A DNA stretch of 44,572 nt from Saprospiraceae bacterium (GTDB lineage Bacteria > Bacteroidota > Bacteroidia > Chitinophagales > Saprospiraceae), in the NCBI GenBank assembly GCA_020630895.1, contig JAHDII010000002.1:1-44572 (forward strand), read 5' to 3'. Positions 1,694 through 12,337 of the stretch are shown here, piece after piece. Every line of letters starts with the position of its first letter. The first letter of the stretch is position 1. Both the position numbers and the translations under genes were made by a program. The notes below the pieces were generated by a model, which made no database searches, was not told where the DNA came from, and was given only the letters and a program-made list of their open reading frames with translations.

Positions 1694-4600
1694 ATGAATA
1701 AATTAATCTATTCTTTTGTATTACTTTGCTTAGGAATTAGTTTTTCCTCAAACGCTCAAATATTAGAACACCATTTAGGAGAATTTTTAATCAAAACACA
1801 ACATCCTATTGAAAAAGTAATGGTATCTCATCAATATTTTGAAGGAGAAAGAACATCACTTGAGCTCAAAAGAAAAGTAGCACCCGTTTTTAATATTTAT
1901 CTAGTTCAATTTGATCATGGAACCATTCATGAAGATCGATTTTTAAAAGAACTAAAAAAGAATCCTTTAATAGAGGTAGTTCAATACAATCATATTATAT
2001 CTTATCGTGCCACACCTAATGATACTCAATTTGCAGATCAATGGCAATATATTAATACAGGACAATCAGGAGGAACAGCAGGAGCAGATATTGATGCAGA
2101 TCTTGCTTGGGATATTACGACTGGAGGTGTTACAGCTTTAGGGGATACTATTGTAGCGGCTATTATTGATGATGGTTTAGATTGGACGCACAGTGATTTT
2201 GGTGATAATATTTGGGTGAATTATGCAGAAATTCCTAATAATGGAATTGATGATGATAATAATGGATATGTAGATGATTATCAAGGATGGAATGCCTATA
2301 ATAATAATGATAATATTACAGGAGGTTGGCATGGCTCACCAGTTGCTGGAATTGTAGGAGCACAAGGAAATAATAATAATGGAGTAGCTGGAGTGAATTG
2401 GGATGTTAAATTAATGATTATCCAAGGAGGAGGAGGAGAAGCTGATGCTTTAGCTGCTTATGCTTATTGTTATACTCAGAGAAAAAGATATAATGAAACA
2501 GCAGGAGCAGAAGGAGCATTTGTTGTAACAACTAATGCTTCTTGGGGTGTTGATTTTGGGCAACCAGCAGATGCGCCTCTTTGGTGTTCTTTTTATGATA
2601 CTTTAGGAATGCAAGGAATTATGAGTTGTGGTGCTACCATTAATGGGGATCAAAATGTAGATGTTGTTGGTGATTTGCCTACTGCTTGTCCTAGTGATTG
2701 GCTCATTTCTGTTACAAATATGAATGACAATGATGTTAAAGTGACTCAAGCAGGGTATGGAGCTACAACTATTGATTTAGGAGCTTTTGGTGCTGATACT
2801 TGGACTATTGCTCAAGGAAATTCTTATGGAGGTTTTGGTGGAACTTCTGGTGCAACGCCCCATGTTACTGGAACGGTAGCCCTGATGTATTCTGTTCCTT
2901 GTCCTAGTTTTGCCGCTTTTGCTAAAGCAGACCCTGCTGCCGCAGCTTTACTAACAAAACAATATATTTTAGATGGAGTAGATCCTAATGCTAGCTTAGA
3001 CGGTATTACCGTTACAGGAGGAAGATTAAATGTATTTAATGCAGTAAATGCTATGATGACTAATTGTGATCCTAATGGTTGTTTTACTCCTTATTCTTTA
3101 CAAGTTGAAAATGTTTTAGATGTTTCAGCTGATTTGGTTTGGAGTGTAGGAGATGATACAGACCAATCGGATATTAGATATAGAGAAGTAGGAACGATGA
3201 CATGGACCGATCTTCCTAATATTACTTCGCCACATTCTCTAACAGGTTTAACTCCTTGTACAGAATATGAATTTCAAGCTTTAGCTATTTGTGATGGTGT
3301 TGCTACAGATTGGTCAAATCCTATTACTTTTCAAACAGATGGATGTTGTGAACCTCCTTCAGAATTGACAATAGATAATATTACAGATAATTCAGCAACA
3401 ATCAATTGGTCTTCTGTATTAGCTGCTGAAAGTTATGATATTCAATATAAAGAAACATCTTCTGCAATGTGGATGAATGCCAATGTTGTAGGAACTACTT
3501 TTTCTTTAACAAATTTATCTCCTTGTACTTCTTATGAAGTTCAAATACAAACCAATTGTGCTGGAGGTGTTAATACTGGTTTTACCTCTAGTTATACTTT
3601 TTCCACTTCAGGTTGTGGTGCTTGTGTTGATGGCAACTATTGTCCTTCTATTGGAGGAGATTCTTCTTTAGAATGGATTGAATCTGTGAGTTTAAATACT
3701 ATTAATAATACTTCTGGAAATGACGACGGTTATGCTAATTATACTAATTTTTCTACAGATTTAGAAGTAGATATGACTTATGACATCACTCTTGAACCTG
3801 GTTTTGATGGCTACCCTTATGATGAATATTTTATGGTATGGATTGATTATAATCAAGATGGTGATTTTGATGATGCAGATGAAGTAGTTTATGATCCAGG
3901 AAATACAACTCAAAATGCTATTACAGGTAACTTCACTGTTCCTACAGATGCTCTTGCGGGTCCTACCAGAATGAGAGTGACTATGAGATGGAATGAAACA
4001 CCTACTTCTTGTCAACAAACTTTTGATTATGGTGAAGTAGAAGATTATTGTGTCAATATTATTAATAATAATAACCCAGATTGTCCTACTCCTTCAAATA
4101 TTACATCACAATTATTAGTAGATAATACCATACAAGTGAATTGGGATGAGGTGGCTAATGGTATTGGTTATGAGGTTCGATATAGAGAAATAACTGCAAT
4201 AATTTGGGAAGGAGATGTAGTTTCTACTCCTGTTATTTTAATTCCTAATTTAGAGGAATGCAAAGAGTTTGAAATTCAAATTAAAACAATATGTGCGATT
4301 GGAACATCTATATTTTCTCCAGTATTTAATTTTTCTAGTTACTGTCCTCCTTCTTGTGATCCTCCAACTAATATTTCTACTTCAAATATTATGGATACAA
4401 CAGTAGATATTTCTTGGGATGCAATGGCAAATGCTTCTAGTTATGATGTTGAATATAGAATCGTAGGAGGAACGTGGTCAATGACAAGTTCTGCTTCAGA
4501 AAATATTACATTGAATAATTTAGATGATTGTAATGATTATGAATTTAAAGTAAGAACCAATTGTGATGGAAATTCTTCTGATTTTTCTTCCAATCAAAAT

Positions 4601-4943: not shown

Positions 4944-5531
4944 TTGAAAAATTTATTTTCTTTTTCAATCATTATTATTATCCTTTTTTCTTCTTGTGAA
5001 TCTTTAATGTTAATGGTTCATAATGAAAAAGCAGCCACTATTATTAAAAAAGGTGACGAAGCATATATTAATGGGGTTCTTGGAAAAAAGTTTTATAAAA
5101 GATTTAAAAAATTTATAAAAGAAAATCCAGAAATAAAAACAATTGTTTTTGAAGAAGTTCCTGGTTCTATTAATGATGAATGGAATGTAAAATCTTGTGT
5201 ACTTTTACATCAATCAGGATTCAATACTCGATTAACATCCAATTCTATGATCGCATCTGGAGGAGTAGATTTATTTATTTCAGGGAATAAAAGATACATT
5301 GAAAAAGGAGCAAAAATTGGAGTACATTCTTGGAGTGATGGAAAAAAAGATGGAGCAGATTATCCTAGAGATGATGAAGGACATCAAATATTTTTTGATA
5401 TGTTTGAAAAAATAAATATGGATACTGCTTTTTATTGGTTCACATTAAGAGCGGCTCCTGCTGAATCTATCCATTTTATGACAGAAGAAGAAATTGAATT
5501 GTATCAATTAAAAAAAGACATTCAGAAGTAA
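4944..5531 (+). CDS. hypothetical lipoprotein, possibly ClpP/crotonase-fold periplasmic protein
   Basis: TTG start. Signal peptide with a lipobox-like LFSSC. The central region VFEEVPGSINDE...IASGGVDLFISG resembles periplasmic ClpP-class proteins, but the assignment is weak. Confidence 0.5.
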   Translation: MKNLFSFSIIIIILFSSCESLMLMVHNEKAATIIKKGDEAYINGVLGKKFYKRFKKFIKENPEIKTIVFEEVPGSINDEWNVKSCVLLHQSGFNTRLTSNSMIASGGVDLFISGNKRYIEKGAKIGVHSWSDGKKDGADYPRDDEGHQIFFDMFEKINMDTAFYWFTLRAAPAESIHFMTEEEIELYQLKKDIQK

Positions 5532-5534
5532 GGG

Positions 5535-6080
5535 TATAGATTTTTCCTAATAATCCCAATAAAGCTCTAATCAATACTCTTTTCTTTTTCATACTTTTAC
5601 ACTTCATTTTACTGTAGCGGACATAACGCTTTAACCATTTTCTATACTTAGTTCTTAATAATTTAGGGGCTCAAATGACGAGATAGTCTTTTTAATTGAG
5701 CATAAGACGATTCTACACTTTCCCATAAAAGTTTGACATTGGTAGGATAACGGATAGAGGATTCATCACAAGTCGCATCACAAGTGATGCTATTTAGATT
5801 TTCCAATATGTTATTAATTCATCTTGCAATTTTTCAACATCTAATTTTTTTGCAATTTCAGAATGTATTTCACTTACTATTTTGTAACTCGATATTCTTT
5901 GGGATGGTGGAATGTATATCTTGAGAGAAAAAGAACTATTCGGTCCTTTTTTATAATCTTTAAGCCTTAGAGCGGATACCAATTTTTGACAAGGAACAGA
6001 TTGGTAAATCTTGCCTAAATCGCTAGACGAAAAAGATAATAATTGTTTGATTTTTAGATAATTAGGTTGATGTTGGATGC
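5535..6080 (-). pseudogene. degraded, 3'-truncated IS4/IS5-superfamily DDE transposase (DUF772-type N-terminus)
   Basis: Three out-of-frame minus-strand segments read FSSSDLGKIYQSVPCQKLVSALRLKDYKKGPNSSFS, then ITCDATCDESSIRYPTNVKLLWESVESSYAQLKRLS, then KRYVRYSKMKCKSMKKKRVLIRALLGLLGKIY. These are typical N-terminal and first-Asp regions of this transposase type. Stops and frameshifts lie between them. Only about the first third of a full-length gene remains, and it abuts the stop of 4944..5531. Confidence 0.75.
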
Positions 6081-6100
6081 TTCTAGATACTCTGAGGTAC

Positions 6101-6223
6101 AAAAAAATCCGCCGAACAAAATTACTCATTCGGCGGAACATCTAAAGGAATCAAAAATTGCTAAATACACGTATAAAAACTGGATTAAAAACGTATTATT
6201 TTTAAAGAACTTTCGCTCTTCTA
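6101..6223 (-). ncRNA. putative small RNA, unit 1 (approximate ends)
   Basis: Promoter-like box at 6229-6258, then 5' hairpin AAGAGCGAAAGUUCUU, then terminator hairpin 6108-6137 followed by U7 on the minus strand. Confidence 0.35.
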
Positions 6224-6228
6224 TTTAT

Positions 6229-6258
6229 CTAGTACAAATAGTTGTCAAAAGGTTGCAT
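6229..6258 (-). promoter_or_regulatory. ECF-type promoter-like box, repeat unit 1
   Basis: Minus strand reads ATGCAACCTTTT-N11-GTACTAG, followed by ATAA. Confidence 0.45.
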
Positions 6259-6275
6259 TCCGTTTAAAATTTTTT

Positions 6276-6398
6276 AGAAATCCGCCGAATAAAAGGTCTC
6301 TTATTCGGCGGAACATCTAAAGGAATCAAAAATTGCTAAATACACGTATAAAAACTGGATTAAAAACGTATTATTTTTAAAGAACTTTCGCTCTTCTA
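6276..6398 (-). ncRNA. putative small RNA, unit 2 (approximate ends)
   Basis: Promoter-like box at 6404-6433, 5' GAAA-tetraloop hairpin (6380-6395), terminator hairpin 6281-6312 followed by UUUCU. Confidence 0.3.
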
Positions 6399-6403
6399 TT
6401 TAT

Positions 6404-6433
6404 CTAGTACAAATAGTTGTCAAAAGGTTGCAT
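6404..6433 (-). promoter_or_regulatory. ECF-type promoter-like box, repeat unit 2
   Basis: Minus strand reads ATGCAACCTTTT-N11-GTACTAG, followed by ATAA. Confidence 0.45.
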
Positions 6434-6450
6434 TCCGTTTAAAATTTTTT

Positions 6451-6575
6451 AGAAATCCGCCGAATAAAAGGTCTCTTATTCGGCGGAACATCTAAAGGAA
6501 TCAAAAATTGCTAAATACACGTATTAAAAACTGGATTAAAAACGTATTTTTTTTAAAGAGTCTTTTACTCTTATA
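6451..6575 (-). ncRNA. putative small RNA, unit 3 (approximate ends); could also be the 3'UTR/terminator of 6637..8487
   Basis: Promoter-like box at 6581-6610, 5' hairpin with compensatory changes (6556-6572), terminator hairpin 6456-6487. Confidence 0.3.
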
Positions 6576-6580
6576 CTTAT

Positions 6581-6610
6581 CTAGTACAAATAGTTGCGAA
6601 AAGGTTGCAT
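6581..6610 (-). promoter_or_regulatory. ECF-type promoter-like box, repeat unit 3
   Basis: Minus strand reads ATGCAACCTTTT-N11-GTACTAG, followed by ATAA. The box is intact even though flanking sequence has diverged. Confidence 0.45.
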
Positions 6611-6636
6611 GGCTATAATTTTTTTTTGAAAAAGAA

Positions 6637-8487
6637 TTACAATTTTATAATTTTCTCTCTATAAAATAAACCGTTTTCTTTATTTGAAATCACTATAAAA
6701 TATATTCCTGATGTATAATGACCTATATTTATAGCCCCTCTATTATTTGTAATACTTTGATTTGTAATTAATTGACCTCTCGTGTTATATAATTGGATAG
6801 ACATATTTGTTTGTAAATCACCAATTTCATAAGAAATTTCATCTTTAGAAATTGTAGGATATATGTGAACATCTTTGCTCAATACTTCATGAATAGATGT
6901 AGAAATACAATTGATTCCCTCAGCAGCAGATGTCCCATCAAAGCTCCAATTCTCATCTATATCTATACACATAAAATCTAATACAGTAGGCACAATATCA
7001 GTATTATGAGGCACTTGTGTATAATCTGAACAAGAATATATAGTGTTATCTATTTCCCAAGAAGCATTATTCATTAATGTTCCATTTTGAGAATAAGAAG
7101 ATAAATCATTAATTAAAGTTCCTGTTCCTTCATCTAATTTCCATAGTCCTACTAAATTAGAATAATTAGGATGAGATACATCTATATTTTTACAATTCCA
7201 TTCGTTTAAAGTTATATTTCTAAGATTTGTATCCCAAATTCTAATCTCACTAATCAATCCATTAAAACTAGAAGGATAATTAGTCGTTCCATCTTGACCA
7301 ATAATTAAAGGGAAATTAGAATCAGAATCCAAAATAAACCCGCTAGTATTGAATTCTTGAATATAACCATCTTGCCAAGTAAAACTAGCTCCTGTTCTAT
7401 CAACAGAAACTGCTATATGATGCCAAGCATTATCATTAATTGTACCTCCTTCTATATCCATTCTAGTTAATAAACCATCTCCCATATTAAATTTCCAAGA
7501 AGAACCATTCGTATTCCCTGCTATTATAAAACCAGAATTAAAACCAGAATCCCAATCTTTATTAGAAATGATAGGAGCATCACTTGACCAACCATTTGTT
7601 TTTAATTTTATTTCGACAGTAAAATTTTTTTCATTAAAATTATGTTGAGGAGCATCTGCTATTTCTATATAGCTATCATTTCCATCAAGATTGATGATAT
7701 TTGTCATATTGATATCAACAATTGTTTTTTCTATGACTTCATTATTGATTAAATTGCTAGAGGCTACATAAAAAATATCTTGGCATGCTGCTTCATTACA
7801 GCCATGTCCTGTTCCAATTCCGCCATGATCTGTACATAATATAATTAACCATTCTTCATTGGAATAATTAGGTCTATTTTCTAGAGCGGTCATTATTTGT
7901 CCAACATGATTATCTATGGTTTCAATAGCTTCTAAATATTCTAAATTTGAAGGACTAAAACCAGAGGAATGTCCTGCATGATCTACATCATCTAAATGGA
8001 TAAATGTAATATCTGGATCTTCATTATTTAATAAATTTATACATGCATCCCTTACCGCAGCATCTGAATCATAAGTTTCTAATGCATCTGTTTGAGTTAA
8101 TGGAGCAATTAATATATTAATAGGTGACCAATGAACAATAGATGCTGTATATAAATCAGGATTAGCAGATTTCACATATTGAAAAAAATGGGGATACTCA
8201 ATCAAATTATTAGGAATGAATACGTTGTCTCTTACACCATGTTTATCCATCCATACTCCCGTAAGTATTGTACTCCAACCTGGTCCACTATATGTAACAG
8301 GTAAAGTTTGTGCTTCATAACTAGTGATACCATTTGCTGCTAAGGCATCCATATTTGGAGTATTTGCTGCTATTGCAGCATCACCTCTAACGCCATCAAT
8401 ACCTATAATTAATGTTTTTCGATTGTTTTGAGCTGATAAAATAATTGTACTGGCTAAGAATAATAAAAGATGTATTAAAAATTTCAT
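6637..8487 (-). CDS. secreted type I phosphodiesterase/nucleotide pyrophosphatase (alkaline-phosphatase superfamily) with a LamG-like lectin domain and T9SS C-terminal domain
   Basis: Signal peptide is present. LIIGIDGVRGD, YSGPGWSTILTG, HLDDVDHAGH and LCTDHGG are metal/nucleophile motifs of the Phosphodiest family. The middle region (AWHHIAVSVDR...GLISEIRIWD) looks LamG-like. The C-terminus HIYPTISKDEISYE...GIYFIVIS is a T9SS CTD. Confidence 0.8.
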   Translation of the reverse strand: MKFLIHLLLFLASTIILSAQNNRKTLIIGIDGVRGDAAIAANTPNMDALAANGITSYEAQTLPVTYSGPGWSTILTGVWMDKHGVRDNVFIPNNLIEYPHFFQYVKSANPDLYTASIVHWSPINILIAPLTQTDALETYDSDAAVRDACINLLNNEDPDITFIHLDDVDHAGHSSGFSPSNLEYLEAIETIDNHVGQIMTALENRPNYSNEEWLIILCTDHGGIGTGHGCNEAACQDIFYVASSNLINNEVIEKTIVDINMTNIINLDGNDSYIEIADAPQHNFNEKNFTVEIKLKTNGWSSDAPIISNKDWDSGFNSGFIIAGNTNGSSWKFNMGDGLLTRMDIEGGTINDNAWHHIAVSVDRTGASFTWQDGYIQEFNTSGFILDSDSNFPLIIGQDGTTNYPSSFNGLISEIRIWDTNLRNITLNEWNCKNIDVSHPNYSNLVGLWKLDEGTGTLINDLSSYSQNGTLMNNASWEIDNTIYSCSDYTQVPHNTDIVPTVLDFMCIDIDENWSFDGTSAAEGINCISTSIHEVLSKDVHIYPTISKDEISYEIGDLQTNMSIQLYNTRGQLITNQSITNNRGAINIGHYTSGIYFIVISNKENGLFYREKIIKL

Positions 8488-8523: not shown

Positions 8524-8561
8524 AAACAAAATCCGCCGAACAAAACTATTTGTTCGGCGGA
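8524..8561 (-). terminator. rho-independent terminator of the sigma/anti-sigma operon
   Basis: 13-bp stem tccgccgaacaaa / tttgttcggcgga with a 4-nt loop, followed on the minus strand by AUUUUGUUU. Confidence 0.75.
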
Positions 8562-8623
8562 AAAATTTAAACCTACTTTTATAAAATCATGAGAAAGTAT
8601 AAATACTTTCCTTTGTGCCATTT

Positions 8624-10147
8624 TTAAAATCGGTAAGCTAATCCAGCTTCCAAACCGACACTGAAAGGATATGTTTGACCACCACTATTAAAAGTAGTCT
8701 TTTTTGTTAGCCCTTCAAGTGTCGGTTCTACGAAAGCCGTTAGTTCATCACTAACTCTATAGTTTAGACCTACACCCATTAAATAACTTAAAGATAATTT
8801 ATCTTTAAGGGGTTCCTTACTTATATAAGAAATATTATGAAAATATACATCTTCATCGTATGTTCTTAAATGATTTACTTTTATATCTTCTTTTAAGGAA
8901 ATATTACCTACAATTCCTCCTTTTACAGAGAAAAATAAATCTCCTCTACCTATATTATATTGAGCAATAACAGGAATTTCTAATTCTCTTTTGTTATAAC
9001 TTAATTCTGCTAACATAGGAATGTTTCTACCTTCTTCTACTATAATATTGGGTTCTCTTACAGTGTACATTTTTACATCTATATTACCTACTGAAGTTTC
9101 CATATTATATTGAGAAGGGCTATATAAATTTTCATCGGCTAAAGGTACTTCTAACTCAGATGAAAACGCCATATTACCTGCATGTCTTATATTCACACGA
9201 CTTTCATCATAACGAAGTCCTGTATAAATGCTCAAATTTTTATTAATAGAATATCCTAAACGTACTCCAATATCATAAGGTAATTCTATAGATTCATCAT
9301 AATTTACCTTTTGAGTAATAGCTGGATTAGGATTAGAATATTTATGTACGAGCATTTGTGGTGCATAACTTGCGGCTACATACCATTTTCCTCCATCCAA
9401 TTCTTTAATCTTTTTCTTTCTCTCAGCAAGTTTTATAGAAGGAATTTCTTCTTTTAAATCTACTTCTAAAGAAGGAAAACTAATAGATGGTAATGCGTTT
9501 AAGTTTGTTTTGGTCAAAAGACCCTTTTGATTTGATGTATTATTGTCTTCTATAATATCTTCTTTTACATCATTTTGAATTGTTGTTGTATTAGAACTAT
9601 TGTCTTGGTAAACTACAGTTGTATTATTATTTTCTTTTGTAGGAAGTATTGGAAAATAATTTTTTGTTGATGATGAGGAAGATTTATTTTGATTTCCTAC
9701 TGTGATTACTGGAGGTTTTTTACCATTATTTCCTAATTGGTTGACTTCAATATTTCCATTATTTCTAGTAGGAATTATTTTATTAGAATTGGTAGTATTA
9801 TTTTGATTACTAGAATATTGAGTTTCCATATAATTTTTAAATGAAGAAATTTCTTCATTTAAACTAGAAATACTTCCTTTACTTTCTTCTAATTGAGAGC
9901 TAATAGCATCTAATTTCTTTTGATACTGATAATTATTAAAGCCTAAAAATAGAATTAAACAAGCTGCAACAGCAGAGCTTGTCCATATAAATAAAGGTCG
10001 AATAATTGATTTAGATTCGGGTTTAGGAGGTATTTTGGATTCTATCCGATCCCACATATCTCCTCCTGGAATATCATTGTATCCCTGAAGGCGATCACGG
10101 AAAAAGTTTTCCAAATTATCATTATCATTATGTAGATTTTCTTTCAT
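8624..10147 (-). CDS. putative anti-sigma factor-like protein: N-terminal cytoplasmic segment, one TM helix, Asn/Ser/Thr-rich linker, C-terminal outer-membrane beta-barrel-like domain
   Basis: Lies immediately downstream of the ECF sigma gene (17-nt gap). TM segment is LFIWTSSAVAACLILFLGF. A coiled-coil-like stretch is present. The C-terminal ~260 aa have alternating beta-strand character and end in ...GLEAGLAYRF, an aromatic terminus typical of OM barrels. Confidence 0.6.
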   Translation of the reverse strand: MKENLHNDNDNLENFFRDRLQGYNDIPGGDMWDRIESKIPPKPESKSIIRPLFIWTSSAVAACLILFLGFNNYQYQKKLDAISSQLEESKGSISSLNEEISSFKNYMETQYSSNQNNTTNSNKIIPTRNNGNIEVNQLGNNGKKPPVITVGNQNKSSSSSTKNYFPILPTKENNNTTVVYQDNSSNTTTIQNDVKEDIIEDNNTSNQKGLLTKTNLNALPSISFPSLEVDLKEEIPSIKLAERKKKIKELDGGKWYVAASYAPQMLVHKYSNPNPAITQKVNYDESIELPYDIGVRLGYSINKNLSIYTGLRYDESRVNIRHAGNMAFSSELEVPLADENLYSPSQYNMETSVGNIDVKMYTVREPNIIVEEGRNIPMLAELSYNKRELEIPVIAQYNIGRGDLFFSVKGGIVGNISLKEDIKVNHLRTYDEDVYFHNISYISKEPLKDKLSLSYLMGVGLNYRVSDELTAFVEPTLEGLTKKTTFNSGGQTYPFSVGLEAGLAYRF

Positions 10148-10164: not shown

Positions 10165-10701
10165 TTAAATTAAAATTTTTTCTAAAGCTTTTCTTAAATT
10201 AGCTTTAGCCCTAGATAATTGTGATTTTGATGTATTCACACTAATTCCTAATTGTTCTGATATTTCTTTATGAGAATATCCTTCAATTACATATAAATTA
10301 AAAACCACTCTATACCCTTCGGGTAATTTCTGCATCAATCGTACCAAATCTTTTGCTTCTAAATCACTTACTATATCTTCATTAGATGGTATAGCTTGAA
10401 CGGCTTCATCGGAAAAATCATTAAATACAAGATTTTTTCTTTTTCTAATATACCTCAAACAAGAATTGATAACTACTCTTCTAATCCAACCTCCAAAAGG
10501 TCCAATAGGCTTGTATTGATACAAATCAGAATATACTTTAATAAAAGCTTCTTGCATCATATCTTCTGCTTCTGCTCTATCTTTAGCATATCGCATACAA
10601 AGCCCAAAAACATCTCTTTTAAACATATTATACAGATCATACTGCGCTTTTCTTTCGCCGTTAATACATCCTTTGATAATATTTTGTTCTGTTTGTTTCA
10701 A
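10165..10701 (-). CDS. RNA polymerase ECF-type sigma-70 family factor
   Basis: Region 2 is RAEAEDMMQEAFIKVYSDLYQY...FGGWIRRVVINSCL. Region 4 is GYSHKEISEQLGISVNTSKSQLSRAKANL. The ORF track starts at 10764, but that ATG lies inside the promoter-like box. I prefer the in-frame TTG at 10701 (MKQTEQNIIKGCING...), so the start is uncertain. Confidence 0.85.
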   Translation of the reverse strand: MKQTEQNIIKGCINGERKAQYDLYNMFKRDVFGLCMRYAKDRAEAEDMMQEAFIKVYSDLYQYKPIGPFGGWIRRVVINSCLRYIRKRKNLVFNDFSDEAVQAIPSNEDIVSDLEAKDLVRLMQKLPEGYRVVFNLYVIEGYSHKEISEQLGISVNTSKSQLSRAKANLRKALEKILI

Positions 10702-10754
10702 ATGCAATGTTATTTGAACCTTTTGAAAGATTTTGATTAGGTTTGTATGCTTAC

Positions 10755-10784
10755 CTAGTACCATTTAAGATAAAAAGGTTGCAT
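10755..10784 (-). promoter_or_regulatory. candidate autoregulatory ECF-type promoter of the sigma gene
   Basis: Minus strand reads ATGCAACCTTTT-N11-GTACTAG, followed by GTAA. It is identical in sequence and spacing to the box in the three tandem units. The layout TGCAAC-N16-GTA resembles ECF -35/-10 architecture. Confidence 0.5.
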
Positions 10785-11607: not shown

Positions 11608-12337
11608 ATTGGATCATCATTAATAAAAACAATCCTAAAAAGATAGTAATGCTAAAACTAATAAGTGTTCCTATTAAAATATATTCTGTTCTCATTTGAT
11701 TGGTAGGATTGTTTAAATCTCCAAATCGAAAAACAGATTTAGCTGCTATTAAAAAACCAATAGCAGAAAAATTACTAGAAATAATAAAAGTTAAAATTAA
11801 AATTCTCTCTAGTCGTCCAATCCATTTACCTGCATCTTTCAATCCTAAATCTTCCATTTTCATAGCTTCATGCCATCTTGAAGTTGCAATTTGCATAAAA
11901 AATGACATAGGTTGATAGACTATATAATAAGCTGCTGCAATCATCAAATTTTTATAGGTTAATACATTTTTTCCAAATTCAATAAATGAATTGCCTCCAT
12001 CTAAAACTAAAGATGTTACACCTAATATTGTTAATAAATGAAAAACTTGATCTAAAATAAAAGCCCTTGATTTGTATTGTTTAAATAATCCTTTAATACT
12101 ATCTATTAACCAATGTAAAACTCCTAATAAAACAGCATAATGAATTTTAGTCCAATCAAAAATAGCAATGATTATAATATAGAAAGCAGTATGTAATAAT
12201 ACATGATATAACAGGTATTTAGATTTGAATCCTTTTTCTTTTTTTTCTTTTACCCATAAATCAGGTTGAAAACTAAAATCTGCTAATAAATGTGCAATTA
12301 ATAATAGTGGTAATAAGATTGTGTTATCCAATAGCAT
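11606..12337 (-). CDS. DUF3307-like polytopic membrane protein
   Basis: N-terminal LLIAHLLADFSFQPDLWVKEKK matches the DUF3307 pattern, and multiple TM helices are present. The start overlaps the upstream SatD-like gene by 14 nt. Confidence 0.6.
   Translation of the reverse strand: MLLDNTILLPLLLIAHLLADFSFQPDLWVKEKKEKGFKSKYLLYHVLLHTAFYIIIIAIFDWTKIHYAVLLGVLHWLIDSIKGLFKQYKSRAFILDQVFHLLTILGVTSLVLDGGNSFIEFGKNVLTYKNLMIAAAYYIVYQPMSFFMQIATSRWHEAMKMEDLGLKDAGKWIGRLERILILTFIISSNFSAIGFLIAAKSVFRFGDLNNPTNQMRTEYILIGTLISFSITIFLGLFLLMMIQ

Follow-up and report, generated by a model that had tools for sequence, protein, structure and literature searches.

Genes and features of the locus

The window, a 44-kb stretch of Saprospiraceae DNA (44,572 nucleotides), carries on its minus strand an ECF sigma factor gene (10165-10701), an anti-sigma factor gene (8624-10147), a phosphodiesterase gene (6637-8487) and, 3.5 kb downstream of the sigma gene, a repeat array that is bounded by a degraded transposase fragment (5540-6095). 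The sigma gene has a TTG start and encodes a protein of 178 aa with Sigma70_r2 and Sigma70_r4_2 domains, which matches only the generic sigma70-ECF model of NCBIfam (Sig70_bacteroi1 is below its cutoff). Homologs at 71-79% identity are mostly 178 aa long as well, and the ATG at 10764 of the listed sigma ORF falls within the -10 box of a promoter described below. The anti-sigma gene, followed by a terminator at 8532-8561 (minus strand), encodes a Dma-type protein of 507 aa. This protein itself gives only a weak match to PF13505 (E 0.18); its full-length match, a 489-aa protein from the related locus L015, matches PF13568 OMP_b-brl_2 (E 2e-80). By eye, it has a cytoplasmic N-terminus, one hydrophobic stretch that is likely membrane-spanning, a low-complexity linker and a C-terminal beta-barrel-like region. 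The Dma module of Bacteroides has the same order, a sigma gene and then a gene for an anti-sigma factor with a cytoplasmic N-terminus, one membrane helix, a disordered linker and an OMP beta-barrel. In having a sigma factor confined to regions 2 and 4 and, directly after it, an anti-sigma gene of Dma architecture, the locus corresponds to the published definition of the ECF21/Dma family, a Bacteroidota-specific envelope-sensing module (PMC10927553, PMC13088901).

The neighbours of the array are those named in the original prediction, a T9SS phosphodiesterase gene and an IS remnant, as is apparent from the Phosphodiest, LamG and Por_Secre_tail domains of the former and the transposase match of the latter. 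The phosphodiesterase has no cluster mates and its nearest homolog in the searched collections is 68% identical; the lineage of the window is apparently absent from the genome, metagenome and viral collections searched, and its affinity seems to lie with Saprospiraceae more than with Flavobacteriia. The transposase fragment, which is ISNCY/IS5-like and directly adjoins unit 1 of the array, covers only profile positions ~104-214 of models with ~430 positions; as it is 5'-truncated, the IS's own end is not at the junction with unit 1. Beyond the fragment lies a convergent ORF, and the window has no co-oriented ORF directly downstream of the array of the kind that a cis-acting leader or attenuator would precede.

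Structure of the repeat array

Tandem Repeats Finder reports a single tandem array at 6105-6610, with a period of 175, 2.9 copies and 95% matches (score 896), in agreement with the ~175-bp minus-strand modules that had been proposed. Each copy, read on the minus strand, has a box (ATGCAACCTTTT-N11-GTACTAGATAA) followed in turn by a 5' hairpin, a body rich in A and U and a terminator hairpin rich in G and C. When the units are aligned, unit 2 is identical to unit 1 at columns 1-159 and to unit 3 at columns 113-191; it is an exact chimera of the two, which points to an unequal crossover. The three copies are therefore not independent observations. Units 1 and 3 are ~90% identical, and we propose that they would be the two older paralogs from which unequal crossover made three copies, raising the dosage of the unit.

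The 5' hairpin is AAGAGCGAAAGUUCUU in unit 1 (6205-6220) and unit 2 (6380-6395) and AAGAGUAAAAGACUCUU in unit 3 (6556-6572), all on the minus strand. The first form, AAGAGC-GAAA-GUUCUU, has a stem of 6 bp including one G.U pair, and the second, AAGAGU-AAAAG-ACUCUU, also has 6 bp. The compensatory changes reported between them are present, a C-G pair becoming U-A and the G.U pair becoming G-C, and this amounts to a single comparison, of unit 1 with unit 3, because unit 2 is chimeric. Both the G.U pairs and the single compensatory change are compatible with the minus strand only, since the plus strand would have a C.A mismatch in place of G.U, as originally noted. Folding z-scores of the units are -3.7 to -5.1 on the minus strand and -1.6 to -3.7 on the plus strand.

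An intrinsic terminator had been assigned to each unit, and this holds in part. GC-rich stems, CCGCCGAA..TTCGGCGG, are found in all three (6109-6136, 6282-6311 and 6457-6486), but a canonical U-run is found in unit 1 only, where a 13-bp stem at 6108-6137 is followed by U7 at 6101-6107 (terminator 6101-6137, minus strand). No other unit has a canonical intrinsic terminator, and a terminator scan flagged this one alone. The terminator of unit 3 (6451-6487, minus strand; hairpin 6456-6487), which the scan left unflagged, has the weak tail UUUCU at 6451-6455, and that of unit 2 (6276-6312, minus strand; hairpin 6281-6312) is identical to it, tail included; some read-through from these two units into the next is therefore likely. 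The unit terminators have a paralog in the terminator that follows the anti-sigma gene; this element (8528-8562) was the only match to the RNA body that nhmmer and blastn found in the window and the fetched loci. Comparison of ORFs on both strands found none that is conserved across the units, as had been claimed: those on the plus strand differ among the units, and those on the minus strand differ in length.

A promoter box shared with the sigma gene

The box ATGCAACCTTTTGACAACTATTTGTACTAGATAA occurs without mismatch at 6225-6258 and 6400-6433 and with two mismatches at 6577-6610, all on the minus strand and one in each unit as predicted, and has no match in shuffles of the window. With its 23 specified positions, the gapped pattern occurs four times in the window without mismatch, where none would be expected. 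The fourth, ATGCAACCTTTT-N11-GTACTAGGTAA at 10751-10784 (minus strand), lies ~50 nt upstream of the start of the sigma gene and is taken to be the promoter through which the ECF sigma operon is autoregulated. In unit 1 the -35 element is at 6251-6257 and the -10 element at 6229-6235, and the transcription start is predicted at ~6221-6224; the box of unit 2 is identical, with a start predicted near 6398. In unit 3 the -35 element TGCAACC is at 6603-6609 and the -10 element GTACTAG at 6581-6587, with a predicted start at ~6573-6576. What the original prediction called a promoter-like box is real, agreeing with the sequence before the sigma gene at 23 of 23 positions, and can be refined to the ECF type rather than the housekeeping type. 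A housekeeping promoter for the units was rejected: no proper Bacteroidota TTTG/TAnnTTTG arrangement is visible by eye at the units, and a sigma-70 scan found no site on their minus strand, with an overall count no higher than in shuffles. Transcription guided by RNA through dCas12f and sigma-E (PMC13472631) was also rejected, as no Cas12f-like gene was seen beside the sigma gene and a defined bipartite motif is common to the sites. GTACT, the -10 element, does not contain the CGT core that is common in ECF promoters, a feature that counts against the explanation we favour.

Comparable loci were obtained by following the synteny of the sigma gene. Synteny via the phosphodiesterase gene (L004-L014) did not give them; its homologs lie in other contexts with nothing unit-like downstream. 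Genes for a DUF4890 protein and fumarase lie upstream of the sigma gene in the window and in L016, L018 and L019, and we read the window as the orthologous locus to these three. Upstream of the orthologous sigma gene, TGCAAC-N16-GxACT is found in seven related loci. Across 12 aligned sites from seven genomes, TGCAAC and GxACT are invariant at a fixed spacing and the spacer itself is variable, which is the signature of a bipartite promoter, and we take TGCAAC-N16-GxACT as the promoter motif of the clade. Because the same box precedes the sigma gene both here and in the relatives, it is best read as the sigma factor's own promoter. Every unit is preceded by a box that matches this promoter of the cognate ECF sigma factor.

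In three of the relatives (L015, L016 and L018) the box recurs 250-270 nt after the anti-sigma gene, in addition to the copy upstream of the sigma gene; no phosphodiesterase gene is present after the anti-sigma gene in these loci. The second box is at 12280 in L015, and L018 has boxes at 6031 and 6962. After this box comes a short stretch of non-coding sequence containing a 5' hairpin; in L015 and L018 a hairpin with a T-run follows ~100 nt downstream of the box, and in L016 ~300 nt separate the box and the T-run. In the more distant L024 both sites have the same variant, GGCAAC..TACACC (CAGGCAAC-N15-TACACCAA); the motif changes together with the sigma factor. Conservation does not stop at the -10 element but reaches into the start of the transcript, GT(G/A)TAAG, and the spacer of the unit 3 box, TTCGCAACT, is also that of the L016 box, so the units of the window and the small transcripts predicted in the relatives appear to be homologous. 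Searches of all loci with nhmmer and blastn detected no homolog of the RNA body; what the family members share is the promoter, the transcript start and the architecture, and they are not alignable beyond the promoter.

Interpretation as probable sigma-dependent small RNA genes

The units are best read as genes for sigma-dependent sRNAs with a predicted length of ~120 nt. We consider it reasonably likely, with ample room for doubt, that the array comprises three tandem sRNA genes on the minus strand whose promoters are recognised by the ECF sigma factor encoded upstream. The minus-strand small-RNA reading of the original prediction held up in all the checks made and gains independent support, at the level of predicted transcripts, from the box shared with the sigma gene and from the relatives that have a box and hairpin after the anti-sigma gene. 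Under this model the sigma factor would be held by the Dma-type anti-sigma factor, which would span both membranes by analogy with Bacteroides Dma1. Once released, it would activate its own operon through the box at 10751-10784 and also the boxes of units 3, 2 and 1. Each transcript would begin a few nucleotides before a protective 5' stem-loop, continue through ~70 nt of AU-rich, largely unpaired sequence and end in the GC-rich terminator; the weak U-tracts of units 3 and 2 would allow some read-through, probably stopping at the strong terminator of unit 1. The most likely mode of action of the RNAs would be base-pairing in trans with mRNAs that encode envelope or secreted proteins, making them a non-coding arm of the stress regulon comparable to MicA, RybB and MicL in the sigma-E response of E. 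coli. This bacterium thus probably has an RNA arm to its envelope-stress response, as E. coli does.

The relatives also provide the material for a different reading. In L015, L016 and L018 the box-driven non-coding stretch is followed by a homologous small lipoprotein gene (150-165 aa), in L018 the box, RNA and lipoprotein gene are duplicated as a module, and in L024 a protein gene lies ~135 nt beyond the second box, with no intervening terminator; the box may for these reasons ancestrally have driven a protein gene. The window lacks a homolog of the lipoprotein gene, and the truncated IS fragment abuts unit 1. The units could then be orphaned promoter and leader modules: the box would have driven the lipoprotein gene via a long structured 5' leader, and the gene would later have been lost during an IS-associated rearrangement, leaving remnants that are non-functional, act only in cis or serve as a sigma-factor sink. 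We regard this as unlikely, given that in L015 and L018 two hairpin and T-run terminators stand between the box and the lipoprotein gene, followed by a separate promoter-like motif, GGAAGC-N16/17-CGTT, of which these loci contain three pre-lipoprotein sites and one other match, on the opposite strand. Moreover, a clean 175-bp repeat with a spacer of 22 nt is not what the scar of a deleted 500-bp gene would look like, and in units 1 and 3, despite ~10% divergence, the box and the hairpin pairing are retained, as are 80 of 82 body positions.

The sharing of the box with the sigma gene bears equally on the alternative raised in the original prediction, under which unit 3 would simply be the 3' end (3'UTR and terminator) of the phosphodiesterase gene and the array a neutral local duplication of it. 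No separate terminator lies between that gene and the unit 3 hairpin, and a recent unequal crossover is evident, but this origin is disfavoured, and we think it improbable, because every unit contains a complete copy of the sigma-gene box and the relatives keep the box and a small predicted non-coding transcript after the anti-sigma gene where there is no phosphodiesterase gene; the closest phosphodiesterase homologs, for their part, have no such unit downstream. There is very little to suggest that the units encode small proteins, even though short ORFs are present in each (21-23 aa on the minus strand, a 9-aa MQPF(D/R)NYLY, and 36 and 66 aa on the plus strand): those on the minus strand overlap the terminator hairpin, either beginning inside it or passing through it, a TTG ORF has 10 aa in unit 1 (by eye) versus 21 aa in the other two units, those on the plus strand show no conservation from unit to unit, and the 9-aa ORF overlaps the promoter box. 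It is just as hard to credit that the repeat is part of a mobile element (an IS end, a MITE or an integron-like site) that was carried in with the IS adjoining unit 1. The unit lies outside the IS fragment, which is truncated and does not have its own end at the junction. Its body has no other copy in the window or the fetched loci, contrary to what a dispersed element bounded by inverted repeats would show, and the box and transcript start are syntenic in IS-free relatives. Exact-pattern scans found no copies either: TGCAACC-N15-GTACTAGATAA had three matches in the genome collection, all in coding-like sequence with the rest of the unit absent, a 21-mer of the body recovered three copies of one unrelated coding sequence from the metagenome collection, and a 28-mer had no match in the viral collection.

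Relation to known small RNAs and Dma modules

At gathering thresholds, Rfam gave no match in the whole window or in five related loci, and in the array region nothing rose above threshold among matches at E up to 10. The best sub-threshold matches were VrrA (30.6 bits against a threshold of 50), whose score comes mostly from the terminator, and BTnc049 (17.8 against 81.9). The unit belongs to none of the curated Rfam families, VrrA, MicA, RybB and the BTnc sRNAs of Bacteroides included, and hence the Rfam scan recommended with the original prediction leaves no known family to explain it.

We consider the array a new case of two known kinds: the sigma-E-type sRNAs, MicA and RybB among them, and the sRNA genes that occur in tandem arrays. 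MicA, RybB and MicL of E. coli and Salmonella and VrrA of Vibrio (RF01456) are sigma-E-dependent sRNAs. The predicted RNAs resemble them in having an ECF-sigma promoter of the kind by which the sigma factor controls its own gene, an unstructured pairing region, a Rho-independent terminator and a presumed role as the repressive arm of an envelope-stress regulon. They differ in that there is no homology in sequence or structure, as the VrrA score shows, in that the sigma factor is ECF21-like with a Dma anti-sigma factor and not RpoE/RseA, and in that the sRNA genes are adjacent to the sigma operon and present in three copies; to our knowledge Bacteroidota also lack Hfq. Tandem multi-copy sRNA loci include LhrC1-5 of Listeria, PrrF1/2 of Pseudomonas, OmrA/B of E. 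coli and Qrr of Vibrio. As in these, the units are head-to-tail paralogs that would answer to one regulator while each having its own promoter and terminator, and copy number shifts by unequal recombination; the regulators of the known arrays, however, are two-component systems, Fur and LuxO, and their sequences are unrelated. If the units are sRNA genes, the array illustrates cleanly how unequal crossover can amplify such a gene.

We know of very few Bacteroidota sRNAs with a known transcriptional regulator, and in the literature searched we found none tied to the ECF sigma factors that are numerous in this phylum. A precedent for a link between sigma-E and sRNAs outside Proteobacteria is provided by FoxI and FoxJ of Fusobacterium nucleatum, which are reported to be experimentally validated sigma-E-dependent sRNAs (PMC11005410); they belong to another phylum and have no sequence relation to the array sRNAs, which are predicted only. 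In Dma modules a regulon member adjoins the operon, for example NigD2 (BT_4719) in B. thetaiotaomicron or the lipoprotein gene in L015, L016 and L018, whereas the adjacent member here is a predicted non-coding array. The Dma/Das module has recently been shown to control outer-membrane vesicle production in Bacteroides, and the published Dma regulons consist of protein genes only, with no sRNA mentioned (PMC10927553, PMC13088901). A sigma-dependent sRNA beside a Dma-type operon suggests that a post-transcriptional arm has been missed. More tentatively, and with the balance of our judgement still against it, Bacteroidota could have independently evolved a circuit from an envelope-stress sigma factor to repressor sRNAs, the Dma/Das (ECF21) outer-membrane-sensing module having a non-coding output arm immediately behind its operon. 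The position, promoter and transcript start of this arm may be conserved across a Saprospiraceae-like clade, with a fast-evolving body and one to three copies. The motif TGCAAC-N16-GxACT provides a concrete clade promoter through which the regulon can be read from genome sequence alone.

Candidate mRNA targets were sought by duplex energies and exact complementarity, among 33 translation start regions of the 44-kb window and also in the related loci, and no outlier was found. The start region of the anti-sigma gene ranks second of the 33 in the window (z ~ -1.7), but in the relatives it is not ranked among the first three. Near-complementarity exists between the segment GAUUCCUUU and the sequence immediately 5' of the start codon of the anti-sigma gene, and on this basis we propose, speculatively, that the sRNAs might feed back on translation of the anti-sigma gene.

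A tandem array of three units on the minus strand

Tandem Repeats Finder detects a single array at 6105-6610 (period 175, 2.9 copies, 95% matches, score 896), confirming that the triplication described in the original prediction is real, and all four of the parts listed there are present in each unit. When the three head-to-tail units are aligned as read on the minus strand, the order is U3 (about 6448-6636), U2 (6273-6447) and U1 (6098-6272). Each contains a bipartite promoter-like motif, ATGCAACCTTTT-N11-GTACTAGATAA (the box; 6577-6610 in U3, 6400-6433 in U2 and 6225-6258 in U1), which has no matches in the shuffled window. Eight nucleotides past the box lies a 5′ hairpin (6556-6572, 6380-6395 and 6205-6220, respectively), then an AU-rich body of ~70 nt and a terminator stem, CCGCCGAA..TTCGGCGG (6457-6486, 6282-6311 and 6109-6136). 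Relative to shuffled sequences, the units fold with z-scores of -3.7 to -5.1 on the minus strand and -1.6 to -3.7 on the plus strand. The proposed terminators hold up in part: the stem occurs in every unit, but a canonical U-run follows it only in U1, the tails of U2 and U3 being UUUCU, and U1's is the only one of the three flagged by a terminator scan.

U1 and U3 are about 90% identical, and U2 is an exact chimera of the two, identical to U1 over alignment columns 1-159 and to U3 over columns 113-191; the array therefore arose by unequal crossover between the older paralogs U3 and U1. The hairpin differences that had been read as compensatory (C-G to U-A and G.U to G-C) are present as claimed, but because U2 is chimeric the copies are not independent and all of the "covariation" among the units stems from one comparison.

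The box as the probable promoter of an ECF sigma factor

The box is seen again in the DNA upstream of a gene that a domain search identifies as an ECF sigma factor (listed ORF 10165-10764(-)). Searched with the pattern ATGCAACCTTTT-N11-GTACTAGRTAA, the window yields four sites, each with 0 mismatches where 0 are expected: the three units and 10751-10784(-). The ATG given for the sigma gene in the ORF list, at 10764, falls within the -10 part of this fourth box. Most sigma homologs with 71-79% identity have a length of 178 aa, which indicates that the true start is the TTG at 10701, so that the box lies about 50 nt upstream of the coding sequence, the position expected of an autoregulated ECF promoter. 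Automatic annotation would make the sigma protein 21 aa too long (window 10699-10764(-)).

Using the sigma gene, we retrieved the syntenic loci L015, L016/L017, L018, L019, L023 and L029 together with the more distant L024; genes for DUF4890 and fumarase flank the locus in the window and likewise in L016, L018 and L019. A box is found upstream of the sigma gene in every related locus, and a second box lies 250-270 nt past the anti-sigma gene in L015, L016 and L018. Across 12 aligned sites, drawn from 7 genomes, TGCAAC and GxACT are invariant and the spacing is fixed, with a variable spacer. The sigma factor of L024 is 55% identical, and both sites there (4104-4145, its own promoter, and ~6455-6490) carry the variant CAGGCAAC-N15-TACACCAA; judged from these sequences, the motif changes together with the sigma factor. 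We have high confidence that the box is the promoter of the ECF sigma factor encoded in the window.

The gene following the sigma gene matches PF13568 (OMP_b-brl_2) in L015, L018 and L024. Its window counterpart, a 507-aa protein (8624-10147(-)), has no Pfam match at E up to 0.01 and aligns over its full length with the 489-aa protein of L015 (E 2e-80). The chain of this anti-sigma factor leads from a cytoplasmic N-terminus through one membrane-spanning helix and a disordered linker to an outer-membrane barrel at the C-terminus, the architecture of the "dual membrane-spanning anti-sigma" (Dma) proteins, whose pairing with ECF21 sigma factors is confined to Bacteroidota (PMC10927553, PMC13088901). 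After the anti-sigma gene stands a terminator, TCCGCCGAAC..GTTCGGCGGA plus a T-run (8532-8561(-)), that is paralogous to those of the units: it has the same right arm as U1, TTTTGTTCGGCGGATTTT, with 88.6% identity over 35 nt.

What the second box precedes in related loci

Past the second box in L015 and, twice, in L018 lies a non-coding stretch of about 100 nt that has a 5′-proximal hairpin and a long hairpin plus T-run, a putative small transcript that we call the B RNA. In both loci its terminator is followed by another conserved hairpin plus T-run (element C) and then by a gene for a 150-165-aa lipoprotein; L016 has the same layout in longer form. The similarity between the window units and these loci does not stop at the -10 element but takes in the start of the transcript, GT(G/A)TAAG, and the spacer of U3, TTCGCAACT, has its match in the L016 box. 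On the strength of these two matches the window units and the B RNAs look homologous, though their bodies cannot be aligned.

Proposed function and alternatives

We consider it probable that the array comprises three sigma-dependent, trans-acting sRNA genes of about 120 nt, switched on with the sigma operon. The Dma-type anti-sigma factor would release the sigma factor, activating its own operon and the three sRNA genes; each sRNA would carry a protective 5′ hairpin, then an unpaired AU-rich region up to the terminator, and would act in trans through base-pairing. The minus-strand small-RNA reading of the original prediction is supported, and is sharpened by the shared sigma promoter. The analysis shows that the promoter is shared, how the units are built, that the locus is syntenic and that U2 originated by crossover; that the units are transcribed, need the sigma factor, act in trans and have mRNA targets is what we infer. 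Target scans yield no outlier: the anti-sigma start region ranks second of 33 in the window, and nothing similar is seen in the relatives.

An alternative that we regard as unlikely is that a lipoprotein gene was lost and that the units are the promoter and leader modules it left orphaned. The window holds no lipoprotein homolog. In L024 a PepSY-like gene follows the second box at a distance of about 135 nt without an intervening terminator, so the ancestral second promoter may have driven a protein gene. A separate motif, GGAAGC-N16/17-CGTT, precedes the lipoprotein genes past the two terminators (L015 12519; L018 6369 and 7204), which speaks against the B RNAs being mere leaders; the only other match in these two loci is on the opposite strand. 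With its classic ECF-like CGT -10, this motif suggests control of the lipoprotein genes by a second, different ECF sigma factor.

U3 adjoins the stop codon of the 6637-8487(-) gene, whose product carries Phosphodiest, LamG, DUF4983 and Por_Secre_tail domains (domain search), and the array could be a duplication of a 3′UTR, a reading to which we give little weight. The phosphodiesterase has no close relative (best homolog 68% identical), and no unit-like sequence lies downstream of its homologs, which sit in other contexts (L004-L014); the closest adjoin ThiF/MoeB-type or LytTR genes and are not syntenic with the window, and one of these, L007, shares its MAG with L015. In the window lineage an insertion seems to have placed the T9SS phosphodiesterase gene between the sigma operon and the array. 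It is very improbable that the units encode small peptides: as predicted, no ORF is common to all of them. Just as hard to credit is an IS-borne repeat. A stop-riddled fragment matching ISNCY and IS5 models does lie at 5540-6095(-), but its match is confined to positions of about 104-214 in profiles of about 430 positions; it is a 5′-truncated transposase remnant, and what meets U1 is therefore not the element's own end. The Rfam scan proposed with the original prediction gives no family match in the window or the relatives. Convergent with the IS fragment is a 195-aa ORF (4944-5531(+)) that has no Pfam or NCBIfam match passing the thresholds used.

Comparison with known systems

The array would be the Bacteroidota counterpart of the sigma-E-dependent sRNAs MicA, RybB, MicL, VrrA, FoxI and FoxJ, and would resemble these and the tandem sRNA arrays LhrC1-5, PrrF1/2 and OmrA/B in its working, but it falls outside all of those families by sequence and structure. 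The Das/Dma regulon papers describe protein genes only and do not mention sRNAs (PMC10927553, PMC13088901), and our full-text literature searches turned up no ECF-dependent sRNA described from Bacteroidota. Two elements are new: the promoter motif of a Dma/Das-type sigma factor, and a candidate for a non-coding arm of its pathway. The evidence is entirely in silico and comes from an uncultured lineage. The affiliation with Flavobacteriia implied by the original prediction is probably wrong: the best named prolyl-tRNA synthetase matches (75-78% identity) are mostly Saprospiraceae MAGs, pointing to a probable Saprospirales-like source; the GC content of the window is 29%.

Further conserved elements

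Between the anti-sigma gene and the second box of the relatives lies a conserved non-coding element, A (..TGCAAAAAGTTG-N15/16-(T/C)GTAGAT.., a short hairpin and a T-run; L015 ~12140-12235, L018 ~5925-6015, L016 ~11650-11735 and L019 ~7135-7205), which could be a degenerate form of the box from which an RNA of about 50 nt is transcribed; its one counterpart in the window, at 8530-8620, is weak. Element C, TTTAGCAGTATA..GTTTCATCCGAgATGgCGGC.., directly follows the B terminator (L015 12425-12500; L018 6170-6255 and ~7100-7165; L016 ~12100-12185) and might serve as a tandem terminator or represent another small RNA; it has ATTTAGCA..GATG in common with the 3′ half of the window unit. L018 carries a tandem duplication of the entire module, from the box through the B RNA and the C hairpin to the lipoprotein gene (6026-7740), and the two lipoproteins, 43% identical, both begin with a lipobox and then acidic residues (SCKDDD).
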